The position numbers and the translations under genes were made by a program. From a virus, in the UHGV virus genome UHGV-0057520: a stretch of DNA of 30,871 nt; one strand, 5' to 3'. Position 1 is the first letter of the stretch. The number at the start of each line of letters is the position of its first letter. The notes beneath the pieces are model-generated. The model worked only from the letters and a program-made list of their open reading frames with translations. It searched no databases and was not told the DNA's origin. Shown piece after piece: positions 3,390 to 11,676 of this stretch.

Positions 3390-4266
3390 GTTAGCTGATT
3401 ACAGGCATAACCCTGTACAACATCAGGAGGCATCCAGTATGGGGTATGTCTCTATACACCGCCAGTTTATGGACAGCAGGCTCTATAAGGACTCTCAGGC
3501 AGTACATCTTTGGCTTCACTTAATTCTCAAGGCTAATCACGAATCTACTGTCGTCAATACGGATATCGGGCCGATAACTGTTGATCGCGGTCAGATGATA
3601 ACTGGACGCCCGTCGCTGGTCAGAGAAACATTCATCCCCGACAACAAAGTTCGGAGCTTATTACGGACTTTTGAGTCGAAAGGGATGCTTAATATTTGCT
3701 CGATGGGGAAGAAATTTAGCCTGTTTACAATCGTTAAATATGACGATTTTCAGGCAAAAAATTGTCCAACGGTTGTCCAACGGTTGTCCAACGCAAACAC
3801 CAGTAATGGCGCGGCTCTCAGCGGAGATTGTCCAACGGTTGTCCAACAGTTGTCCATAAACAATAATATAAATAATATCTCTAATACTGACGTATTAGAG
3901 AGTGCCACAGCAGACAAAAAGTCTGACAAGAAAAAACCTTCCGTTAGCTGTCAGGATGTTGTCGATGCTTACCACGAAATCCTTCCTGAAGCGCCAAGAA
4001 TCCGCGCACTGAATGACAAGCGTAAAAACCAGATCCGAACGTTCTGGCGCAAAGCCGGAGTGATAACCCGCCAGCTTGACGGGCATGGGTTCACGATGCA
4101 GGACTGGAGAAATTATTTGAGCTACGTAGGCGAAAATTGCCGATGGATGTTCGAAGAACGCCCAAACCATCAACGCGGAACCGTCTGGCACAAAAAGGGA
4201 TTTGATTTCCTGCTTAACGACAATACCTACCTGAAAGTTCGTGAGGGTGAACACGATGACCGATAA
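3376..4266 (+). CDS. replication initiation protein (lambda O / P22 gene 18 analogue)
   Basis: 296 aa directly upstream of the helicase gene; contains the origin iteron array inside its coding sequence, as lambda O does; AGGAG ribosome-binding site before 3376. Confidence 0.7.
   Translation: MGVVKLADYRHNPVQHQEASSMGYVSIHRQFMDSRLYKDSQAVHLWLHLILKANHESTVVNTDIGPITVDRGQMITGRPSLVRETFIPDNKVRSLLRTFESKGMLNICSMGKKFSLFTIVKYDDFQAKNCPTVVQRLSNANTSNGAALSGDCPTVVQQLSINNNINNISNTDVLESATADKKSDKKKPSVSCQDVVDAYHEILPEAPRIRALNDKRKNQIRTFWRKAGVITRQLDGHGFTMQDWRNYLSYVGENCRWMFEERPNHQRGTVWHKKGFDFLLNDNTYLKVREGEHDDR
3762..3900 (+). repeat. replication origin: six direct iterons (TTGTCCAACGG-like) plus adjacent AT-rich segment
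   Basis: Copies at 3762, 3773, 3784, 3827, 3838 and 3849 (last truncated), followed by AAACAATAATATAAATAATATCTCTAATACT; translated as the repeated CPTVVQRLSN peptide. Confidence 0.7.
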
Positions 4267-5692
4267 TTTTTATGCGCCGCCCCATAGCATCGAGGCAGAG
4301 CAGGCGGTGATTGGTGGATTGCTTCTGGATGATGACAGCAGTGAGCGCGTCCAGAAAGTTCTGGCGATGCTGAAGCCTGATTCATTTTACAGCCGACCAC
4401 ACAAAATCCTTTTCGAAGAAATAACCAGAATGCACCGGGAGCAAAAGCCAGTAGATGGCCTGACGCTTTTCGATGAACTGGAGCGTAAATCGTTAACGGC
4501 GTCTGTTGGCGGTTTTGCTTATATCGCTGAGATCGCAAAGAACACGCCAAGCGCAGCAAACATCGTTGCCTATGCAATGCAGGTTCGCGAAACCGCAATG
4601 GAACGCTATGCCATCAACCGCATGACTGAAGCGACGGAATTGCTCTATTCCCGCAACGGAATGACTGCAACGCAGAAGTACGAAGCTATTCAGGCGATTT
4701 TCACGCAACTGACAGACCATGCAAAAACCGGATCGCGTCGCGGCCTTCGCTCATTTGGTGAGGTCATGGAAGACTGGGTTAGCGACCTTGAGAAGCGATT
4801 TGACCCGTCAGGCGAACAACGAGGAATGAGCACAGGGATCCCATCTCTGGACAGGATGCTGTCACCGAAAGGTCTGGTGAAAGGCTCTCTGTTCGTCATT
4901 GGCGCTCGCCCTAAGATGGGGAAAACGACGCTATACAGCCAGATGGCAATCAACTGCGCAGTGCATGAGAAAAAGCCCGCTCTGATGTTCAGCCTTGAAA
5001 TGCCAGGTGATCAGATACTTGAAAAACTGGTAGGACAGAAGTCAGGTGTTAACCCAAATATTTTTTACCTTCCGGCGACAAATGACGCCGATGACGGCTA
5101 TCAGGGTGATTACGATGGTGACTTCAACAGGGCGATCGAAACAGCTAATCGCTTGAGTGAAATCGACATGCTTTACATCGACGACACGCCGGGATTATCT
5201 CTGGCTCAAATCGTCAGCGAAAGCCGTCGAATCAAGCGAGAAAAAGGATGTGTTGGCATGATTCTGGTCGATTACCTGACACTAATGACCGCTGAGAAGG
5301 CCGATCGCAACGACCTTGCTTACGGCATGATCACCAAAGGACTGAAGAACCTTGCCAAAGAGCTTGATTGCGTTGTTGCGCTTCTGACGCAGCTTAACCG
5401 CGCATTGGAAAGCCGAACCAATAAACGCCCATTACCAAGTGACTCGCGCGATACAGGACAGATTGAACAGGATTGCGATTATTGGGTGGGGATCCATCGT
5501 GAAGGTGCTTTTGATGACAGTGTTCCACCTGGTGAAACCGAACTAATCCTTCGTCTCAATCGTCATGGCAATACCGGCACGGTGTATTGCATTCAGGCAA
5601 ATGGCGCTATTTATGACACAGACCAACAGTCTGCTGAAATGCGCCGCCGTGAACGCGAGGAACCGCAGTCCAAGAAGAAAGGAGGATTCTGA
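4256..5692 (+). CDS. DnaB-family replicative helicase (P22 gene 12 analogue)
   Basis: ORF track starts on GTG at 4241; ATG at 4256 with GAGGGTG upstream; DnaB-like N-terminus (HSIEAEQAVIGGLLLD) and Walker A (GARPKMGKTT). Confidence 0.85.
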   Translation: MTDNFYAPPHSIEAEQAVIGGLLLDDDSSERVQKVLAMLKPDSFYSRPHKILFEEITRMHREQKPVDGLTLFDELERKSLTASVGGFAYIAEIAKNTPSAANIVAYAMQVRETAMERYAINRMTEATELLYSRNGMTATQKYEAIQAIFTQLTDHAKTGSRRGLRSFGEVMEDWVSDLEKRFDPSGEQRGMSTGIPSLDRMLSPKGLVKGSLFVIGARPKMGKTTLYSQMAINCAVHEKKPALMFSLEMPGDQILEKLVGQKSGVNPNIFYLPATNDADDGYQGDYDGDFNRAIETANRLSEIDMLYIDDTPGLSLAQIVSESRRIKREKGCVGMILVDYLTLMTAEKADRNDLAYGMITKGLKNLAKELDCVVALLTQLNRALESRTNKRPLPSDSRDTGQIEQDCDYWVGIHREGAFDDSVPPGETELILRLNRHGNTGTVYCIQANGAIYDTDQQSAEMRRREREEPQSKKKGGF

Positions 5693-5784
5693 TGACCATC
5701 TACATCACTGAGCTAATAACAGGCCTGCTGGTAATCGCAGGCCTTTTAATATGGGGGAGAGTAATTGGAGGATTTAAGAAATGA
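5692..5784 (+). CDS. possible 30-aa hydrophobic peptide translationally coupled to the helicase
   Basis: ATG overlaps the helicase stop (TGATG); encodes MTIYITELITGLLVIAGLLIWGRVIGGFKK; its stop overlaps the next ATG at 5781. Confidence 0.25.
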   Translation: MTIYITELITGLLVIAGLLIWGRVIGGFKK

Positions 5785-5996
5785 GTACGATAGCTGAGCT
5801 TGTCAGGGCTAATTTTCGTGAAGAGTTGGTGCGTTGGTATCGGTATCGTTCATCGTCAAGTTTGCCGCTTGATGAGTTGTATGAGCATTCACCTGCCGCA
5901 CGACGCTATCCGCGTGACCGTGTTCTTCGACGGTTGTTCAAACTCAACAATGAGTTTCAGCGCAACAGAATAATCCGGAGTCTGGATTTAAAGTGA
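5781..5996 (+). CDS. hypothetical protein, 71 aa
   Basis: ATG at 5781 with GGAGGA 8 nt upstream; Arg-rich; no family recognised. Confidence 0.45.
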   Translation: MSTIAELVRANFREELVRWYRYRSSSSLPLDELYEHSPAARRYPRDRVLRRLFKLNNEFQRNRIIRSLDLK

Positions 5997-6006
5997 AGGA
6001 GTGAGC

Positions 6007-6192
6007 ATGAGTCGACGAAGTAGCTTTTTGGGGTTTGTAATATTCCTGTTCTGCACTGGTTACATCGTAATCTGGTCAATTTCGAACATTGACCGTGGCG
6101 GGGAATATCTCATTGTAATGTTCTTTCCTTTGTTTCTTGGGTGGTACGCCGCAAGGTTGCTGGAAGAATGGGGTTACAGGCATAAAAAATAA
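6007..6192 (+). CDS. small membrane protein, about 61 aa, two predicted helices
   Basis: ORF track starts on GTG at 6001; ATG at 6007 with AAGGAG upstream; hydrophobic stretches FLGFVIFLFCTGYIVIW and LIVMFFPLFLGWYAA. Confidence 0.45.
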   Translation: MSRRSSFLGFVIFLFCTGYIVIWSISNIDRGGEYLIVMFFPLFLGWYAARLLEEWGYRHKK

Positions 6193-6251
6193 AGGAGTGT
6201 TCAGTGACGCAAACCATTTTTTATTGGATTAAGAGCGAGTGGTAAGTACCG

Positions 6252-6434
6252 ATGGTAAATGCATTTATTTGTAGTTTATTTCTTGTCGCGATTTTTCATG
6301 GATTCCTTTTGATGATGAGTTTTGTTCTCTGGAATAATGGATATCGCATATTGGGAGTAGGTTTTGTTTTACGGTTTTCAGTTCTCTGCGCGTTGCTACC
6401 GATAATTATGGCGACTATCAAATATTATTGGTAA
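6252..6434 (+). CDS. small hydrophobic membrane protein, 60 aa, AT-rich
   Basis: Almost entirely hydrophobic (two helices); weak ribosome-binding site, so coding status is uncertain. Confidence 0.35.
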   Translation: MVNAFICSLFLVAIFHGFLLMMSFVLWNNGYRILGVGFVLRFSVLCALLPIIMATIKYYW

Positions 6435-6449
6435 CCCAAAAAATCATCG

Positions 6450-6818
6450 ATGGAGAGTGATATGGACGAATCAAGAAAGCAGTTTGAGGAATACGTTGCC
6501 AAAAAATTGAGATTACCATTCGAGATGATAACCGAGGCAAGAAATGGTGATAGGTACTTCGCATTTTCAAGCATGGATATTCGTCACTCCTTAAATGAGT
6601 GGTGGACTTTATGGCAGGCATCGCGAGCAGCTATTGAACTGGATATCGACTGGCCAGAATCGAATGACGACTTTTGGAAAGATGGTGAAGAAGGTGCTTA
6701 TGCGATGGGTTATGAGGATGGGCGTGACAAAACGGTAATTGCAGTAATGAAAGCTATCAGAGCCGCTGGAATTAAAGAGAAGAATTTCGATGAAGCAAAC
6801 AATCTTCCTCCGAAGTAA
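6450..6818 (+). CDS. hypothetical acidic protein (nin-region)
   Basis: ORF track start 6450; an alternative ATG at 6462 has a better GGAGAG ribosome-binding site; no family recognised. Confidence 0.45.
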   Translation: MESDMDESRKQFEEYVAKKLRLPFEMITEARNGDRYFAFSSMDIRHSLNEWWTLWQASRAAIELDIDWPESNDDFWKDGEEGAYAMGYEDGRDKTVIAVMKAIRAAGIKEKNFDEANNLPPK

Positions 6819-7200
6819 GCAACAACAGCAAGCCGCAATCAACGCCATCCTCGCAACACCACTCGATAAAGACAAGCCAGTTACCATCCGCATTACTGAC
6901 TACAAGCGCAACCTTGACCAGAACGCAAAATTTCACGCGATGCTGGCGGATATCGCACGTCAGGTTCAATGGTGCGGAAAATGGTTAAAACCGGAACAAT
7001 GGAAGGTTTTGTTGATCAGCGGTCATGCAGTGGCAACAAAACAGGAAGCTGATGTTTTGCCCGGGCTTGAAGGCGAATACGTCAACATTCGCGAAAGTAG
7101 CGCGCAGATGAGTGTGAAGCGTATGGCAAGTCTGATTGAGTACACGACAGCATGGGCTATTGGTCAGGGTGTCAGATTTACCGACAGGAGGTACGAATGA
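6790..7200 (+). CDS. ninB: NinB (Orf-family recombination mediator)
   Basis: 136 aa; [32 protein letters not shown] parallels lambda NinB (SLDQN...W.GRWL) as I recall it. Confidence 0.75.
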
Positions 7201-7373
7201 GACGACAGCGACGAAGTATCACCGACATCATCTGCGAAAACTGCAAATACCTTCCAACGAAACGCACCAGAAATAAACGCAAGCCAATCCCGAAAGAATC
7301 TGACGTAAAAACCTTCAACTACACGGCTCACCTGTGGGATATCCGGTGGCTAAGACATCGTGCGAGGAAATGA
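7197..7373 (+). CDS. small basic Cys-containing protein (NinD/NinE-like)
   Basis: ATG at 7197 overlaps the ninB stop (ATGA) with GGAGG upstream; 58 aa; the ORF track extends it upstream in the same frame from 7152. Confidence 0.4.
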
Positions 7374-7735
7374 CAATGGATTATTCACAGTTAAGTGATT
7401 TTGAAATTAACGTGGCGGTATTCGAAGCCATTCATAACGGATCACCGGATTACAAAGAAGGTGAGAATGGCGATATGGTGTTTGTCTCATTTGAGGGAGA
7501 CATTGTAAACGGAGACGCAGTTGAAGTAGAGGTTGAGCGCGGATCCTTTAACCCATGCGCAAACCCAGCAGACGCATGGCCGATTATTGAAAAATACAGG
7601 ATTAGCATTATCAATCTCGATGAAGACGAGTGGGGTGCACGCGGTGTGGCCTACTGTAAATCTAAGCGAGCTATACATGAAAATCCCCTCCGCGCCGCCA
7701 TGATTGTCTTTCTCATGATGCAGAGAATCCAATAA
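7370..7735 (+). CDS. hypothetical protein (nin-region)
   Basis: ATG at 7370 overlaps the previous stop, with GAGGAA upstream; acidic, about 121 aa; ORF track start 7334. Confidence 0.45.
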
Positions 7736-7920
7736 TGCTTAGCCCATCCCAATCCCTTCAATACCAGAAAGAAAGCGTCGAGCGAGCTTTAACGTGCGCT
7801 AACTGCGGTCAGAAGCTGCATGTGCTGGAAGTTCACGTGTGTGAGCGTTGTATATATGAATGCTTAAATATGGTGGAACATAATGAGAAATATAAGCAAC
7901 ATAGACGAATTAAGAAATAA
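7735..7920 (+). CDS. small Cys-rich protein (NinF-like zinc ribbon)
   Basis: 61 aa with a CxxC...CxxC pattern; its 3' end runs into the AT-rich HNH gene. Confidence 0.4.
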   Translation: MLSPSQSLQYQKESVERALTCANCGQKLHVLEVHVCERCIYECLNMVEHNEKYKQHRRIKK

Positions 7921-8389
7921 ATTATCATATGATGATGTTTTAGGTGTACTTAGATGGAAAGTGTCTCCTTCTAATAATGTTAAGGTTGGCAGTGTTGCTG
8001 GTTACATTAGGAGTGATGGTTATAGGATGTTAACTATCGATGGTGTAATTACTTATGCTCACCACGTTATATGGATGATAAATAATGGTGAGATTCCATT
8101 AGGGTATAAAATTGATCATATAAATGGAGTAAGGTCAGATAATAGGCTATCTAATCTTCGATTGGTTACACACCAACAGAATGCACAGAACCAAAAGAGA
8201 AAAATAACCAATTCGTCAGGAGTGACTGGAGTATATTTCAATAAAGAGAGATGTAAGTGGATTGCGAATATATGCGTAGATGGGCGCACCAAATATCTTG
8301 GAATATTTGCTAGCATCATTGACGCTATTGCAGAAAGGAAGAGGGCAGAAAAAGAACTGGGTTTTCATGAAAACCATGGCAGACCATAA
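7883..8389 (+). CDS. HNH homing endonuclease with AP2-like DNA-binding domain
   Basis: 168 aa; HNH motif IDHINGVRSDNRLSNLRLVTHQQNAQN; C-terminal SGVTGVYFNKERCKWIANICVDGRTKYLGIF resembles an AP2 domain; markedly AT-rich. Confidence 0.75.
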   Translation: MRNISNIDELRNKLSYDDVLGVLRWKVSPSNNVKVGSVAGYIRSDGYRMLTIDGVITYAHHVIWMINNGEIPLGYKIDHINGVRSDNRLSNLRLVTHQQNAQNQKRKITNSSGVTGVYFNKERCKWIANICVDGRTKYLGIFASIIDAIAERKRAEKELGFHENHGRP

Positions 8390-9297: not shown

Positions 9298-9482
9298 ACG
9301 CCACAATTCAAACGATACCAGAGCTTCTTATCCAGACACGAGGCAATCAGACCGAAGTGGCGAGGATGCTTTCCTGCGCAAGAGGAACAGTGCTCAAGTA
9401 CAACCGAGACAGCAAAGGTGAGCGTCACGTAATAGTTAACGGCGTCCTGATGGTCAAACAAGGCAAGAGGGGAAGACGATGA
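9294..9482 (+). CDS. NinH-like protein
   Basis: TIPELLIQTRGNQTEVARML.C.RGTV.KY parallels lambda NinH (TIPDMLVEAYGNQTEVARRLKCSRGTVRKY). Confidence 0.65.
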   Translation: MNATIQTIPELLIQTRGNQTEVARMLSCARGTVLKYNRDSKGERHVIVNGVLMVKQGKRGRR

Positions 9483-9997
9483 GCATAAGAGAACTAAACC
9501 TCACCAAAGAGCAGCACGAGTGGCTGAATGGCTGGCTTGAACTGTGGGGCGCATGGGTTTATTCAGGTCGTCTGGAAAAGCGCATGAGCAGCGTAATAGC
9601 GAAGTTCATGGAGAGCGTAGAGCCGGGAAGAGTTATGACAAGGCCAATGTGTAATGATGATGATGGAATGTTGATTTCTCAGGTCGTCGATTCCGTCATG
9701 TGCATTGACAAGAAAGCCTTTGGAATCCTCCTCAGCTACTACGCTCATGGTTCATCTAAGCGAGCAATTGCATCCTACTATCACGCGACTGCAAAGCCAC
9801 GCAAGATGTGTGGACGTGGTGGCGAGGGATGGAGAAAGCCTTCACTGGCAACCTGTAGAAACGAAATTGACGACATCCTGAAAGCGTCGTTATTTGTTTT
9901 GTACCAACCAATGCAAAATGCTTTCAAAATGCGTAAACGTGTTGAGAAAGTTAAGCATGTTGCTGTTAAAAGCCTTGACATGCAATTAGCCATTTAG
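9479..9997 (+). CDS. Q: late-gene antiterminator Q
   Basis: 172 aa, last gene before pR'; N-terminal WLELWGAWV motif resembles DLP12-type Q (QuuD) proteins; conserved position upstream of the lysis genes. Confidence 0.75.
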   Translation: MSIRELNLTKEQHEWLNGWLELWGAWVYSGRLEKRMSSVIAKFMESVEPGRVMTRPMCNDDDGMLISQVVDSVMCIDKKAFGILLSYYAHGSSKRAIASYYHATAKPRKMCGRGGEGWRKPSLATCRNEIDDILKASLFVLYQPMQNAFKMRKRVEKVKHVAVKSLDMQLAI

Positions 9998-10458: not shown

Positions 10459-10782
10459 ATGAAGATGCCAGAAAAACATGACCTGTTAGCCGCCATTCTC
10501 GCGGCAAAGGAACAAGGCATCGGGGCAATCCTTGCGTTTGCAATGGCGTACCTTCGCGGCAGATATAATGGCGGTGCGTTTACAAAAACAGTAATCGACG
10601 CAACGATGTGCGCCATTATCGCCTGGTTCATTCGTGACCTTCTCGACTTCGCCGGACTAAGTAGCAATCTCGCTTATATAACAAGCGTGTTCATCGGCTA
10701 CATCGGTACTGACTCGATTGGTTCGCTTATCAAACGCTTCGCTGCTAAAAAAGCCGGAGTAGAAGATGGTGGAAATCAATAA
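10459..10782 (+). CDS. S: class I holin S (dual-start holin/antiholin)
   Basis: 107 aa, essentially identical to my recollection of lambda S, including the MKM dual-start motif. Confidence 0.9.
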
Positions 10783-11242
10783 TCAACGTAAGGCGTTCCT
10801 CGATATGCTGGCGTGGTCAGAAGGAACAGATAACGGACGGCAGAAAACCAGAAATCACGGTTATGATGTTATTGTCGGTGGCGAGCTGTTCACTGATTAC
10901 TCCGATCACCCCCGCAAACTTGTCACGCTAAATCCGAAACTCAAATCAACAGCCGCCGGACGTTACCAGCTTCTTTCCCGTTGGTGGGATGCCTATCGTA
11001 AGCAGCTTGGCCTGAAAGACTTCTCTCCGAAAAGCCAGGACGCTGTGGCACTGCAACAGATTAAAGAGCGTGGCGCTTTACCGATGATTGATCGCGGTGA
11101 TATTCGTCAGGCTATCGACCGTTGCAGCAATATCTGGGCTTCACTGCCTGGCGCTGGTTATGGTCAGTTCGAGCATAAGGCTGACAGCCTGATTGCAAAA
11201 TTCAAAGAGGCTGGCGGAACGGTCAGAGAGATTGAGGTATGA
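10766..11242 (+). CDS. R: endolysin R (lytic transglycosylase)
   Basis: 158 aa, very close to lambda R as recalled; overlaps the holin 3' end as in lambda. Confidence 0.9.
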
Positions 11243-11676
11243 GCAGAGTCGCCGCGATTATTTATGCTCTGGTTATCTGCATCATCGTCTGCCTGTCATG
11301 GGCTGTTAATCATTACCGTGATAACGCCACCGCCTACAAAGAGCAGCGCGATAAAGCCATATCCATCATCGCTGATATGCAGAAGCGGCAACGTGATGTA
11401 GCAGAACTCGACGCCAGATACACAAAGGAGCTTGCTGATGCTAACGCGACTATCGAAAGTCTCCGTGCTGATGTTTCTGCTGGGCGTAAGCGCCTGCAAG
11501 TCGCCGCCACCTGTGCAAAGTCAACGACCGGAGCCAGCGGCATGGGCGATGGAGAAAGCCCAAGACTTACAGCAGATGCTGAACTCAATTATTACCGTCT
11601 CCGAAGTGGAATCGACAAGATAACCGCGCAGGTTAACTACCTGCAGGAGTACATCAGGACGCAATGCCTGAAATAA
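11239..11676 (+). CDS. Rz: spanin inner-membrane subunit Rz
   Basis: N-terminal [30 protein letters not shown] is near-identical to lambda Rz; coiled-coil periplasmic domain. Confidence 0.85.
11438..11623 (+). CDS. Rz1: spanin outer-membrane lipoprotein Rz1 (embedded in Rz, +1 frame)
   Basis: ATG at 11438 with GGAG upstream; signal peptide and lipobox (LLGVSAC) followed by a proline-rich segment. Confidence 0.7.

Follow-up and report, generated by a model that had tools for sequence, protein, structure and literature searches.

The segment that we analysed lies directly downstream of the DnaB-like replicative helicase gene of a P22-like lambdoid phage. Within the window, by which we mean the whole stretch of 30,871 nucleotides, the rightward early operon has the order N, cI, cII, O, DnaB helicase, nin genes, and Q. 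N is located on the minus strand (762-1034), Q at 9479-9997, and the lysis genes at 10459-11676. An earlier note on this DNA had described the segment as a run of very small hydrophobic ORFs following the helicase gene. All four reading frames (ORF1 to ORF4; Table 1) were indeed found on the plus strand where the note had placed them, and ORF1, ORF3, and ORF4 are strongly hydrophobic, but ORF2 is not (GRAVY -0.83). The helicase stop codon TGA (5690-5692) shares base 5692 with the ATG of ORF1 (TGATG, 5690-5694), and the boundary of the mosaic relative to other phages is located precisely at 5691/5692. The same stop/start arrangement is present in other phages, in which this frame follows ren, P, or the helicase gene.

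Table 1. Features of the segment downstream of the helicase gene and of its immediate surroundings
Feature	Position	Strand	Basis or remark
DnaB-like replicative helicase gene	4241..5692	+	ORF and annotation of homologous prophages
ORF1, ninA reading frame, 30 aa, phrog_5907	5692..5784	+	Homology to lambda and P22 ninA
73-bp linker block	5692..5764	+	ninA start, tR2 hairpin, T-run, and GGGGGAGAG; >400 lambdoid phage records
tR2-type intrinsic terminator	5721..5752	+	Terminator scan, folding, P22 annotation, variant comparison
ORF2, DUF7301 family, 71 aa	5781..5996	+	PF23975, phrog_1785, PGAP 'DUF7301 family protein'
ORF3, predicted two-helix inner-membrane protein, 61 aa	6007..6192	+	SD AAGGAG 5996-6001
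Recombination scar	6191..6245	+	Alignment with phage Gally at both junctions
ORF4, predicted two-helix membrane protein, 60 aa	6252..6434	+	Member of an uncurated ~61-aa family
phiTE_015-family gene, phrog_343	6462..6818	+	PGAP name; overlaps the NinB start
NinB	6790..7200	+	End of the variable tR2-to-ninB slot

ORF1 corresponds to the ninA reading frame of lambda (P22 gp53/orf26, epsilon34 gp54) and was assigned to phrog_5907 by profile search (E = 4.8e-15). It has the same position as in these phages: the last replication gene ends with a stop codon that overlaps its start, and its own stop overlaps the start of the next gene, as in the lambda-type element. The ninA/tR2 stretch of about 70 nt is 95.8% identical to positions 40566-40636 of lambda, which come right after ren. 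Its identity to P22 ninA is 90%; the latter is annotated as 'ninA, orf26; similar to lambda ninA' and carries a terminator inside the gene at the equivalent place. In the window, this terminator is formed by the stem AGGCCTGC, the loop TGGTAATC, and the stem GCAGGCCT at 5721-5744, followed by TTTAATAT. The hairpin has an 8-bp stem with six GC pairs and a minimum free energy of -16.2 kcal/mol (z = -3.6); AGGCCTGC-N8-GCAGGCCT is identical in lambda tR2. The lambda hairpin begins 30 nt after the AUG of ninA (PMC4824070), and so does the hairpin in the window. The T-run of the window is weakened, differing from that of lambda by two T-to-A changes (TTTAATATGG vs. TTTTATTTGG), so that the tail following the stem reads TTTAATAT in the window and TTTTATTT in lambda. 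The linker block that carries the ninA start and the terminator has mosaic joints at either end (coverage classes 1-73, 1-70, and 1-32), and the ninA/tR2 linker is kept in hundreds of phages, with lambda, P22, and Stx phages among them. The ninA frame of the window has 30 codons, with its tail provided by the DUF7301 module, versus 26 aa where ninB sets the tail. The earlier note was right about the frame, its hydrophobicity, and its position at the helicase stop, but the 30-aa peptide is not unassigned, since it represents the known ninA of lambda and P22 with tR2 inside (PMC4824070).

ORF2 matches the Pfam family DUF7301 over its full length (positions 1-64 of the 65 in the model; 91.5 bits at a gathering threshold of 27) and shows no difference from this family or from phrog_1785. 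An identical protein, WP_000103679.1, is named DUF7301 by PGAP. The size and the basic nature that the earlier note had ascribed to ORF2 are correct, but again the protein is not unassigned. It contains 16 lysine and arginine versus 9 aspartate and glutamate residues and is a soluble basic protein, not a membrane protein. Its ATG overlaps the ninA stop codon (ATGA), and its gene shows 7 synonymous versus 4 non-synonymous changes among related loci. A sequence search of the PDB with ORF2 retrieved no match, and literature searches on DUF7301 and on small membrane proteins of the nin region did not find any functional work.

ORF3 is preceded by a canonical Shine-Dalgarno (SD) sequence at 5-nt spacing. 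The original ORF list gave it as a frame of 63 aa from a GTG codon (6001-6192). This start was rejected because the GTG falls inside the SD sequence, and the ATG at 6007 was used instead. The frame is open in nearly all of 133 related loci, which comprise 21 distinct DNA sequences without indels; one variant has a shifted stop and one a different 5' end. In comparison with one diverged homologue (72% identical), the dN/dS ratio was 0.19 in frame versus 0.79 and 1.94 off frame (Fisher p = 1.8e-6). Among close relatives, variable sites are spread evenly over the three codon positions (12/11/12). Two helices are indicated by hydropathy and by the AF2 model (residues 3-26 and 30-60); the N-terminus is basic (MSRRSS), and the tail at the C-terminus is charged (EEWGYRHKK). 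For distant homologues, a word-indexed search and searches of species-representative genomes, viral contigs, and metagenome contigs returned only sequences of 90-100% identity and the single one at 72%, and ORF3 appears to be confined to Escherichia prophages. Judged from its conservation, ORF3 is a real gene, and its product is a small membrane protein by prediction, as the earlier note had proposed.

ORF4 is AT-rich (GC 0.34), strongly hydrophobic (GRAVY +1.52), and preceded by a weak SD sequence. When its 257-nt region was shuffled 5000 times, 95 of the shuffled sequences reached its length. It is intact in all 63 related loci, without indels. The AF2 model again contains two helices (2-28 and 32-59), in agreement with the AT-rich membrane protein of about 60 aa described before. 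Homologues of 61-65 aa and 25-49% identity are encoded in prophages of Enterobacter, Atlantibacter, and Erwiniaceae. The distant members were found by hmmsearch in a library of 1.8 billion proteins (E = 3e-9 to 4e-4), and members from viral contigs also fit the pattern of length, two helices, and motif. The family motif is MSFVxWxNxFRxLGxG...R, with S23, F24, W27, N29, L34, G35, and R41 invariant around the turn. The homologous genes are located either in the helicase-to-NinB slot or in the leftward early operon, often with overlapping start and stop codons and with strong SD sequences. For diverged members, dN/dS was 0.08-0.27 in frame versus 0.7-2.0 off frame; within E. coli, where just 11-18 substitutions were available, it was 0.5-0.7 and alike in all three frames. 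Judged from these comparisons, ORF4 is a real gene of a family that is conserved in lambdoid prophages of Enterobacterales.

About 4% of complete E. coli genomes contain at least one of ORF3 and ORF4; prophages of O26, O103, and O111 STEC are among the carriers, and lysogens with the cassette include O26:H11 11368 and O103 ML775. A common origin of the two was rejected, since hhalign of the two families gave a probability of 0.5% and they are unrelated. Scans of both proteins and their diverged homologues against Pfam, PHROG, NCBIfam, and PADLOC assigned no family, and PGAP leaves both genes unannotated, so that the term unassigned, as used in the earlier note, still applies to this pair. The sub-threshold matches (Acyl_transf_3 for ORF3, as well as DUF4181 and T4SS_pilin) are typical of transmembrane (TM) segments. 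Foldseek comparison of both AF2 models with the viral models in BFVD returned nothing below E = 1; helical hairpins are uninformative in such comparisons.

Both genes form mosaic cassettes of their own, and their orders and neighbours vary: in phage Gally ORF4 precedes ORF3, and elsewhere ORF3 is usually located 12 nt 5' of NinB. At the recombination scar between them, the ribosome-binding site and the first six codons of NinB are joined at a T-run to the tail of a Gally/HK97-type variant of ninA. The resulting mini-ORF of 13 codons (6204-6245) ends 6 nt before ORF4. Downstream of ORF4 follows a phiTE_015-family gene, a recurrent downstream neighbour of ORF4-family genes as judged by PF26207 matches on the neighbours and also tested by BLASTP. 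In related prophages, the tR2-to-ninB slot also contains members of phrog_1165 (68 aa, two TM helices) and phrog_5903 (108 aa, one TM helix). They share the slot, the transcription unit, the cassette behaviour, and the small membrane nature with ORF3 and ORF4, but are unrelated to them in sequence and, unlike them, have PHROG families.

Taken together, we consider it probable that the nin region of a P22-like lambdoid phage starts here and that positions 5692-6434 cover its initial 750 bp, comprising ninA/tR2, a DUF7301 gene, and two membrane mini-proteins. The segment consists of four independently assorting mosaic cassettes within the rightward early (pR) operon, and a run of tiny genes of this kind is how a lambda-type "nin" region ordinarily begins. 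With the tR2 core upstream, everything downstream would depend on N antitermination. A consensus scan found no sigma-70-like promoter upstream of ORF3 or ORF4, although weak or non-sigma-70 promoters would escape it; it returned two promoter-like sites in total versus 3.3 expected from shuffles, and the sole site on the minus strand is at 6434-6405. An Rfam scan of positions 5000-7500 (E <= 1) gave only a spurious match to TeloSII (19.6 bits versus a gathering score of 86) and no known sRNA. Both scans bear on a type I toxin-like arrangement, in which ORF3 or ORF4 would have its own promoter and an antisense RNA gene that overlaps it or lies beside it. Both ORF3 and ORF4 follow tR2, and neither has a promoter of its own in this consensus scan, so that they are probably delayed-early, N-dependent genes and not exclusion factors expressed from the prophage. 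Both proteins are therefore predicted to be made, probably, in lytic growth only. The invariant residues of ORF4 are polar or aromatic and clustered at the turn (S23, W27, N29, G35, R41). For this reason, we tentatively suggest as the likeliest mode of action, though at somewhat less than an even chance, that ORF3 and ORF4 bind a specific inner-membrane protein of the host or the phage rather than acting as generic pore-forming toxins. In the lytic cycle, they might thereby bar the entry of DNA from superinfecting phages, or they might adjust a transporter, cell division, or the timing of lysis.

The earlier note had raised the possibility that these small hydrophobic ORFs, among them that of 30 aa, encode membrane peptides for host killing or phage exclusion. 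A small two-helix membrane protein can have such a role, since T4 Imm excludes phages. The idea is in line with the hydrophobicity of the three frames, with the conservation of ORF3 and ORF4, and with the occurrence of phrog_1165 in this slot of other prophages, as a third small membrane protein that has two helices and is unrelated to these two. ORF1, however, is accounted for by tR2, and neither ORF3 nor ORF4 matches a PADLOC defence model (E <= 1) or any toxin, holin, or exclusion family. Moreover, classical lambdoid exclusion genes act in the repressed prophage: P22 SieA and HK97 gp15 are exclusion proteins expressed from the prophage, whereas T4 Imm is expressed early. ORF3 and ORF4, behind tR2 and with no promoter found by the consensus scan, are not expected to be expressed in a repressed prophage, so that a lysogen would not be protected. 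They resemble T4 Imm, with its two TM helices, in that they are likewise predicted small inner-membrane proteins that would be made early in the lytic cycle. Like Imm, SieA, and gp15, they lie outside the structural and lysis modules, but they show no sequence or profile similarity to any of the three. Among 50,697 phage records, only four contain ORF3 and only one contains ORF4. Overall, we did not find any evidence in support of host killing or exclusion, and we regard this explanation of the whole run as unlikely.

For ORF1 in particular, it could be argued that NinA itself is a functional single-pass membrane peptide and that the terminator merely shares its sequence. Three unrelated middle segments all leave the frame open and hydrophobic, at a length of 24-34 aa; one of them is that of variant L042, in which a 34-aa hydrophobic ninA frame is kept with no evident hairpin terminator. 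SD-like motifs are located 5' of the ninA ATG behind unrelated upstream genes, the start of lambda ninA is experimentally active (PMC4824070), and ninA has a PHROG of its own. But any frame that runs through a GC-rich stem and a T-run reads as G/L/A/V/I/F. The hydrophobicity of ORF1 (GRAVY +1.29) is largely a by-product of the hairpin and T-run codons, because the hairpin sequence GGC CTG CTG GTA ATC GCA GGC CTT reads GLLVIAGL. The C-terminal tail changes with every downstream module, and that of ORF1 (RVIGGFKK) is set by the DUF7301 module. Furthermore, HK022 has the hairpin but no ninA start, in variant L104 codon 7 of ninA is a stop, and transcripts ending at tR2 do not contain a ninA stop codon. 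The hairpin-free first 30 nt (10 codons) of ninA show 7 synonymous versus 8 non-synonymous changes and therefore no signal at the peptide level. In at least 18 loci, the lambda-type terminator is replaced at the same position by another hairpin with a T-run (GGGGCTAC...GTAGCCCC TTTTTTATT, z = -3.2). As far as the variant sequences tell, it is the hairpin with its T-run that is conserved, not the ninA peptide, and a function of NinA as a membrane peptide is quite improbable. Instead, ninA may be preserved as a bridge frame by which translation of the first nin gene is coupled to that of the replication genes across the terminator. The frame begins where the last replication gene has its stop codon and ends on or beside the start of the next gene; in at least 10 downstream contexts, the distance of the ninA stop from that start ranges from -14 to +6 nt. 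We infer that in translated read-through transcripts the main role of ninA would be to carry ribosomes past the terminator and on to the first nin gene.

A holin-, pinholin-, or antiholin-like role of ORF3, which would shift the timing of lysis or depolarise the membrane, is very unlikely. ORF3 does resemble class II holins and pinholins such as S21 of phage 21 in size (61 aa compared with about 60-70), in its two predicted TM helices, and in its charged tail, and by the positive-inside rule its basic N-terminus together with this tail would give a similar N-in/C-in topology. But its gene belongs to the nin region, which precedes Q, the lysis genes follow only about 4 kb further downstream, and it was never found beside an endolysin. 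There is no holin family match in Pfam, PHROG, or NCBIfam (E <= 1), and the Foldseek comparison with viral models likewise gave no hit below E = 1. The dual-start motif of S21-type holins is missing as well, since the upstream GTG is located inside the SD sequence and cannot serve as a second start. Finally, a chance origin of ORF3 and/or ORF4, as open frames in spacer DNA that hitch-hikes between nin genes, is highly improbable: PGAP calls neither, ORF4 has a weak SD sequence, low GC, and an uninformative dN/dS within E. coli, and close relatives of ORF3 vary without codon-position bias, but the open frames, whose conservation the earlier note had suggested to check, are kept without indels in the 63-133 loci, both genes are under frame-specific purifying selection in diverged pairs, ORF4 homologues down to 25% identity retain the length and the seven-residue invariant motif across genera, and ORF3 has its canonical SD sequence.

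The arrangement of the nin start also allows a broader, speculative reading, which we consider unlikely to hold as a whole. The tR2-to-ninB slot would be a landing site for interchangeable two-helix membrane proteins (ORF3, the ORF4 family, phrog_1165) that are made only after N antitermination and act on the inner membrane in the lytic cycle; the ORF4 family may pair with the recurrently neighbouring phiTE_015 protein and, separately, ninA may be the bridge frame proposed above. If true, shutting out superinfecting DNA or resetting a host membrane machine would be examples of such activities.

Our results suggest no new kind of system, and their value for annotation is modest. Their main use is to correct the annotation: from sequence alone, tR2 inside ninA, a textbook regulatory element, can be mistaken for the gene of a hydrophobic peptide, and at the same time ORF3 and ORF4, both genuine genes of small membrane proteins, are systematically missed by PGAP. 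The ORF4 family, which is present in several genera of Enterobacterales and has no curated model, is a candidate addition to Pfam or PHROGs. Should these mini-proteins prove to modulate the host membrane in the lytic cycle, the small set of characterised nin-region accessory functions would be enlarged.

The window represents a lambdoid phage or prophage of E. coli, P22-like (Lederbergvirus-type), with a canonical early region: N, a cI-like repressor, cII, an O-like protein and a DnaB-type helicase are followed by the nin genes, with NinB, NinX, HNH, YbcO, RusA and Q located after the helicase. Therefore, ORF1 to ORF4, four tiny genes 3' of the helicase gene, open the nin region of the rightward early (pR) operon. 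All four ORFs described for 5692-6434 in the earlier note are present, including the start of ORF1 at the helicase stop, the basic 71-aa protein and the AT-rich last ORF. For ORF3, the start given by the ORF listing (GTG 6001) was rejected, because it falls within the Shine-Dalgarno (SD) sequence; the real start is therefore ATG 6007. Further downstream, a 61-aa CxxC...CxxC protein (7735-7920) overlaps the start of the HNH endonuclease gene (7883-8389, PF13392), and both together (7735-8389) form an insertion between NinX and YbcO.

Coordinates of ORF1 to ORF4, N and Q in the window
Feature	Coordinates	Strand	Description
N	762-1034	minus	early region
ORF1	5692-5784	+	30 aa; ATG shares base 5692 with helicase stop (TGATG)
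ORF2	5781-5996	+	71 aa; ORF1 stop overlapped by ORF2 ATG (ATGA)
ORF3	ATG 6007 to 6192	+	61 aa; Shine-Dalgarno AAGGAG at 5996-6001
ORF4	6252-6434	+	60 aa; GC 0.34; GRAVY +1.52
Q	9479-9997		early region, after RusA

ORF1 is a textbook case of a reading frame with a terminator inside it. The stretch between 5691/5692 and ~5764 is present in 415 phage records, and the ORF1 block is 95.8% identical to lambda 40566-40636, directly after ren, and 90% identical to P22. Annotated records name the frame ninA (P22 gp53 'orf26, similar to lambda ninA', epsilon34 gp54, mEp234), and in the P22virB-3 record a terminator 'similar to phage lambda' is annotated within it. The sole site found by a terminator scan of 5400-7300 is this terminator, tR2 (AGGCCTGC-TGGTAATC-GCAGGCCT at 5721-5744, then TTTAATATGG), with a hairpin MFE of -16.2 kcal/mol (z = -3.6). 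In lambda, the NinA initiation site, reported as 'not weak', lies in the natural sequence before tR2, which is located 30 bp past the NinA AUG and 16 bp ahead of the stop (Li et al., PMC4824070); the geometry of ORF1 is identical. The T-run of the window (5745-5752) carries two T-to-A changes (TTTAATATGG vs TTTTATTTGG in lambda), shared with a handful of related loci, which probably weaken termination. ORF1 is hydrophobic because the GC-rich stem and the T-run are read as codons (GGC CTG CTG GTA ATC GCA GGC CTT, giving GLLVIAGL).

Conservation, by which the earlier note had proposed to judge the run, spoke against the ORF1 peptide: across the ninA sequences compared, the conserved feature is the terminator. 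The first, hairpin-free 30 nt of the frame show seven synonymous and eight non-synonymous changes, and the C-terminal tail differs with every downstream module. In Gally/HK97-type ninA, a different hairpin and T-run are substituted past nt 32 (GGGGCTAC..GTAGCCCC TTTTTTATT), HK022 keeps the tR2 hairpin without a ninA start, and locus L104 (~2414) has a stop at codon 7. Translation of the frame may still have a role, as suggested by its openness and the placement of its stop. All three middle-segment variants are open and hydrophobic, including the 34-aa variant of L042 (~1213-1320), which lacks an evident terminator hairpin. In ten or more downstream contexts, the ninA stop is within -14 to +6 nt of the next start; these contexts are not fully independent, since several share GGGAAGT past the T-run. 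Lambda, P22, epsilon34, VT2-Sakai and the window have ATGA/GTGA overlaps. ninA could thus act as a bridge frame, linking translation on the two sides of the terminator. The ninA/tR2 linker travels with whichever gene comes last before the nin region; in VT2-Sakai (L003, 14821-15156), it adjoins the stop of orf28 and not that of the helicase, because this extra gene intervenes.

The description of the run as hydrophobic applies to ORF1, ORF3 and ORF4. ORF2 contains 16 K+R vs 9 D+E at a GRAVY of -0.83 and is therefore basic, not hydrophobic. It also has a family, as does ORF1 (ninA/tR2), so that only ORF3 and ORF4 are still unassigned. ORF2 matches PF23975 (DUF7301, a family without known function) over its full length with 91.5 bits (cut-off 27), belongs to phrog_1785, and is identical to WP_000103679.1, named by PGAP. 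Neither a PDB relative nor, in the library searched, a paper on DUF7301 was found.

ORF3 matched no family in Pfam, PHROG, NCBIfam or PADLOC and is mostly left unannotated by PGAP. Its conservation was borne out: a single indel-free frame is present in nearly all of 133 related loci, which comprise 21 distinct DNA sequences; of two deviating variants, one has a shifted stop and the other a different 5' end. Evidence for selection comes from one diverged pair, because the close relatives show no codon-position bias (12/11/12 variable sites). The one diverged homologue, encoded directly 3' of a DnaB helicase gene and 72% identical in amino acids, gives a dN/dS of 0.19 in frame vs 0.79 and 1.94 in the other frames (Fisher's test, p = 1.8e-6). 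ORF3 occurs in 4 of 50,697 phage records and was otherwise found only in Escherichia prophages and gut metagenomes (90-100% identity). The AF2 model contains helices 3-26 and 30-60 (mean pLDDT 71.6), and the charges (MSRRSS..., loop SNIDRGGE, tail EEWGYRHKK) suggest an N-in/C-in topology. A holin-like action is unlikely, since ORF3 lies outside the lysis cassette, lacks a dual start and matches no family.

ORF4 is not related to ORF3. Its AF2 model shows helices 2-28 and 32-59 (mean pLDDT 70.6). Searching 1.84 billion representatives with a profile retrieved 61-65-aa proteins with 30-49% identity; a follow-up search assigned homologues to Enterobacter cloacae, Atlantibacter hermannii and an Erwiniaceae bacterium, and further members derive from viral contigs. 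As for ORF3, conservation holds: all members keep the length, both hydrophobic segments and seven invariant residues around the turn (S23 F24 W27 N29 L34 G35 R41; motif MSFVxWxNxFRxLGxG...R), and diverged pairs show dN/dS values of 0.16, 0.27 and 0.08 in frame vs 0.7-2.0 off frame. Close homologues (78-97% identity) gave 0.5-0.7 in all frames, which in this E. coli branch (L007, L107, L108) could reflect relaxed constraint or too few substitutions (11-18). In lambdoid prophages, the genes occupy the helicase-NinB interval or follow Dam in the leftward early operon; overlapping start/stop codons are frequent, as are strong SDs. In about six of ten distinct contexts (window 6252-6818, L007, L111, L116, L152, L161), the next gene or the one after it is phiTE_015-like, which may indicate a functional pair or simply conservation of synteny. 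In the window, this gene (6450-6818; its model PF26207 is absent from the Pfam copy used) could start at either of two in-frame ATGs (6450 or 6462), the latter favoured by PGAP and an SD (GGAGAG), and at its 3' end it shares 29 nt with NinB.

The slot between tR2 and ninB is mosaic. Matches to other prophages start exactly at 5691/5692, whether the upstream gene is ren, P or a helicase. In phage Gally, the ORF4 module (window 6214-6637) precedes the ORF3 module (5982-6220), and in most prophages ORF3 lies 12 nt upstream of NinB. The ORF3/ORF4 junction of the window (6191-6245) is a visible recombination scar, in which the start of NinB, comprising the ribosome-binding site and six codons (AAAGGAGTGTTCAGTGACGCAAACCATTTTT), is joined at a T-run to the tail of a Gally/HK97-type ninA (TATTGGATTAAGAGCGAGTGGTAA). 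The resulting 13-codon frame (6204-6245) ends 6 nt upstream of ORF4, precisely as is seen for variant ninA in Gally, and may couple translation to ORF4, whose SD is weak. ORF3 and/or ORF4 are present in 214 of 5426 complete E. coli genomes, 58 of which have both in the window arrangement. At other loci, the slot contains a two-TM protein of a third, unrelated type (phrog_1165, 68 aa; not annotated for HK022) or a protein with one TM (phrog_5903, 108 aa), one of which directly follows tR2 in many related prophages (L012 and relatives, HK022 from 33044 onward, L038). Small membrane proteins thus seem to recur in this slot, in a sample biased towards loci picked for having ORF3 or ORF4.

Taken together, the predicted terminator tR2 would gate the ORF2-ORF4 region, and ORF3 and ORF4 are real hydrophobic proteins of the pR operon with two predicted helices. 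No promoter-like site of their own was found upstream of either gene (two sites in the scan vs 3.3 expected from shuffles). Both would be made only following N antitermination, in lytic growth. SieA, Rex and gp15 are lysogen-protecting exclusion factors; with such expression ORF3 and ORF4 would not belong to this type. Binding to a defined membrane partner is favoured over generic pore formation, because the invariant ORF4 residues are specific polar/aromatic turn positions. Structure searches with both models were uninformative. Our best guess, a tentative one that we consider somewhat less probable than even, is a transient role in the lytic cycle, such as keeping out superinfecting DNA in the manner of Imm or adjusting a host membrane machine. 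The original observation is confirmed, its interpretation only partly right: ORF3 and ORF4, though genuine, are ordinary small membrane proteins of phages, as predicted from their sequences. The value of the finding lies mostly in annotation, together with the testable side idea that ninA may serve as a translational bridge.
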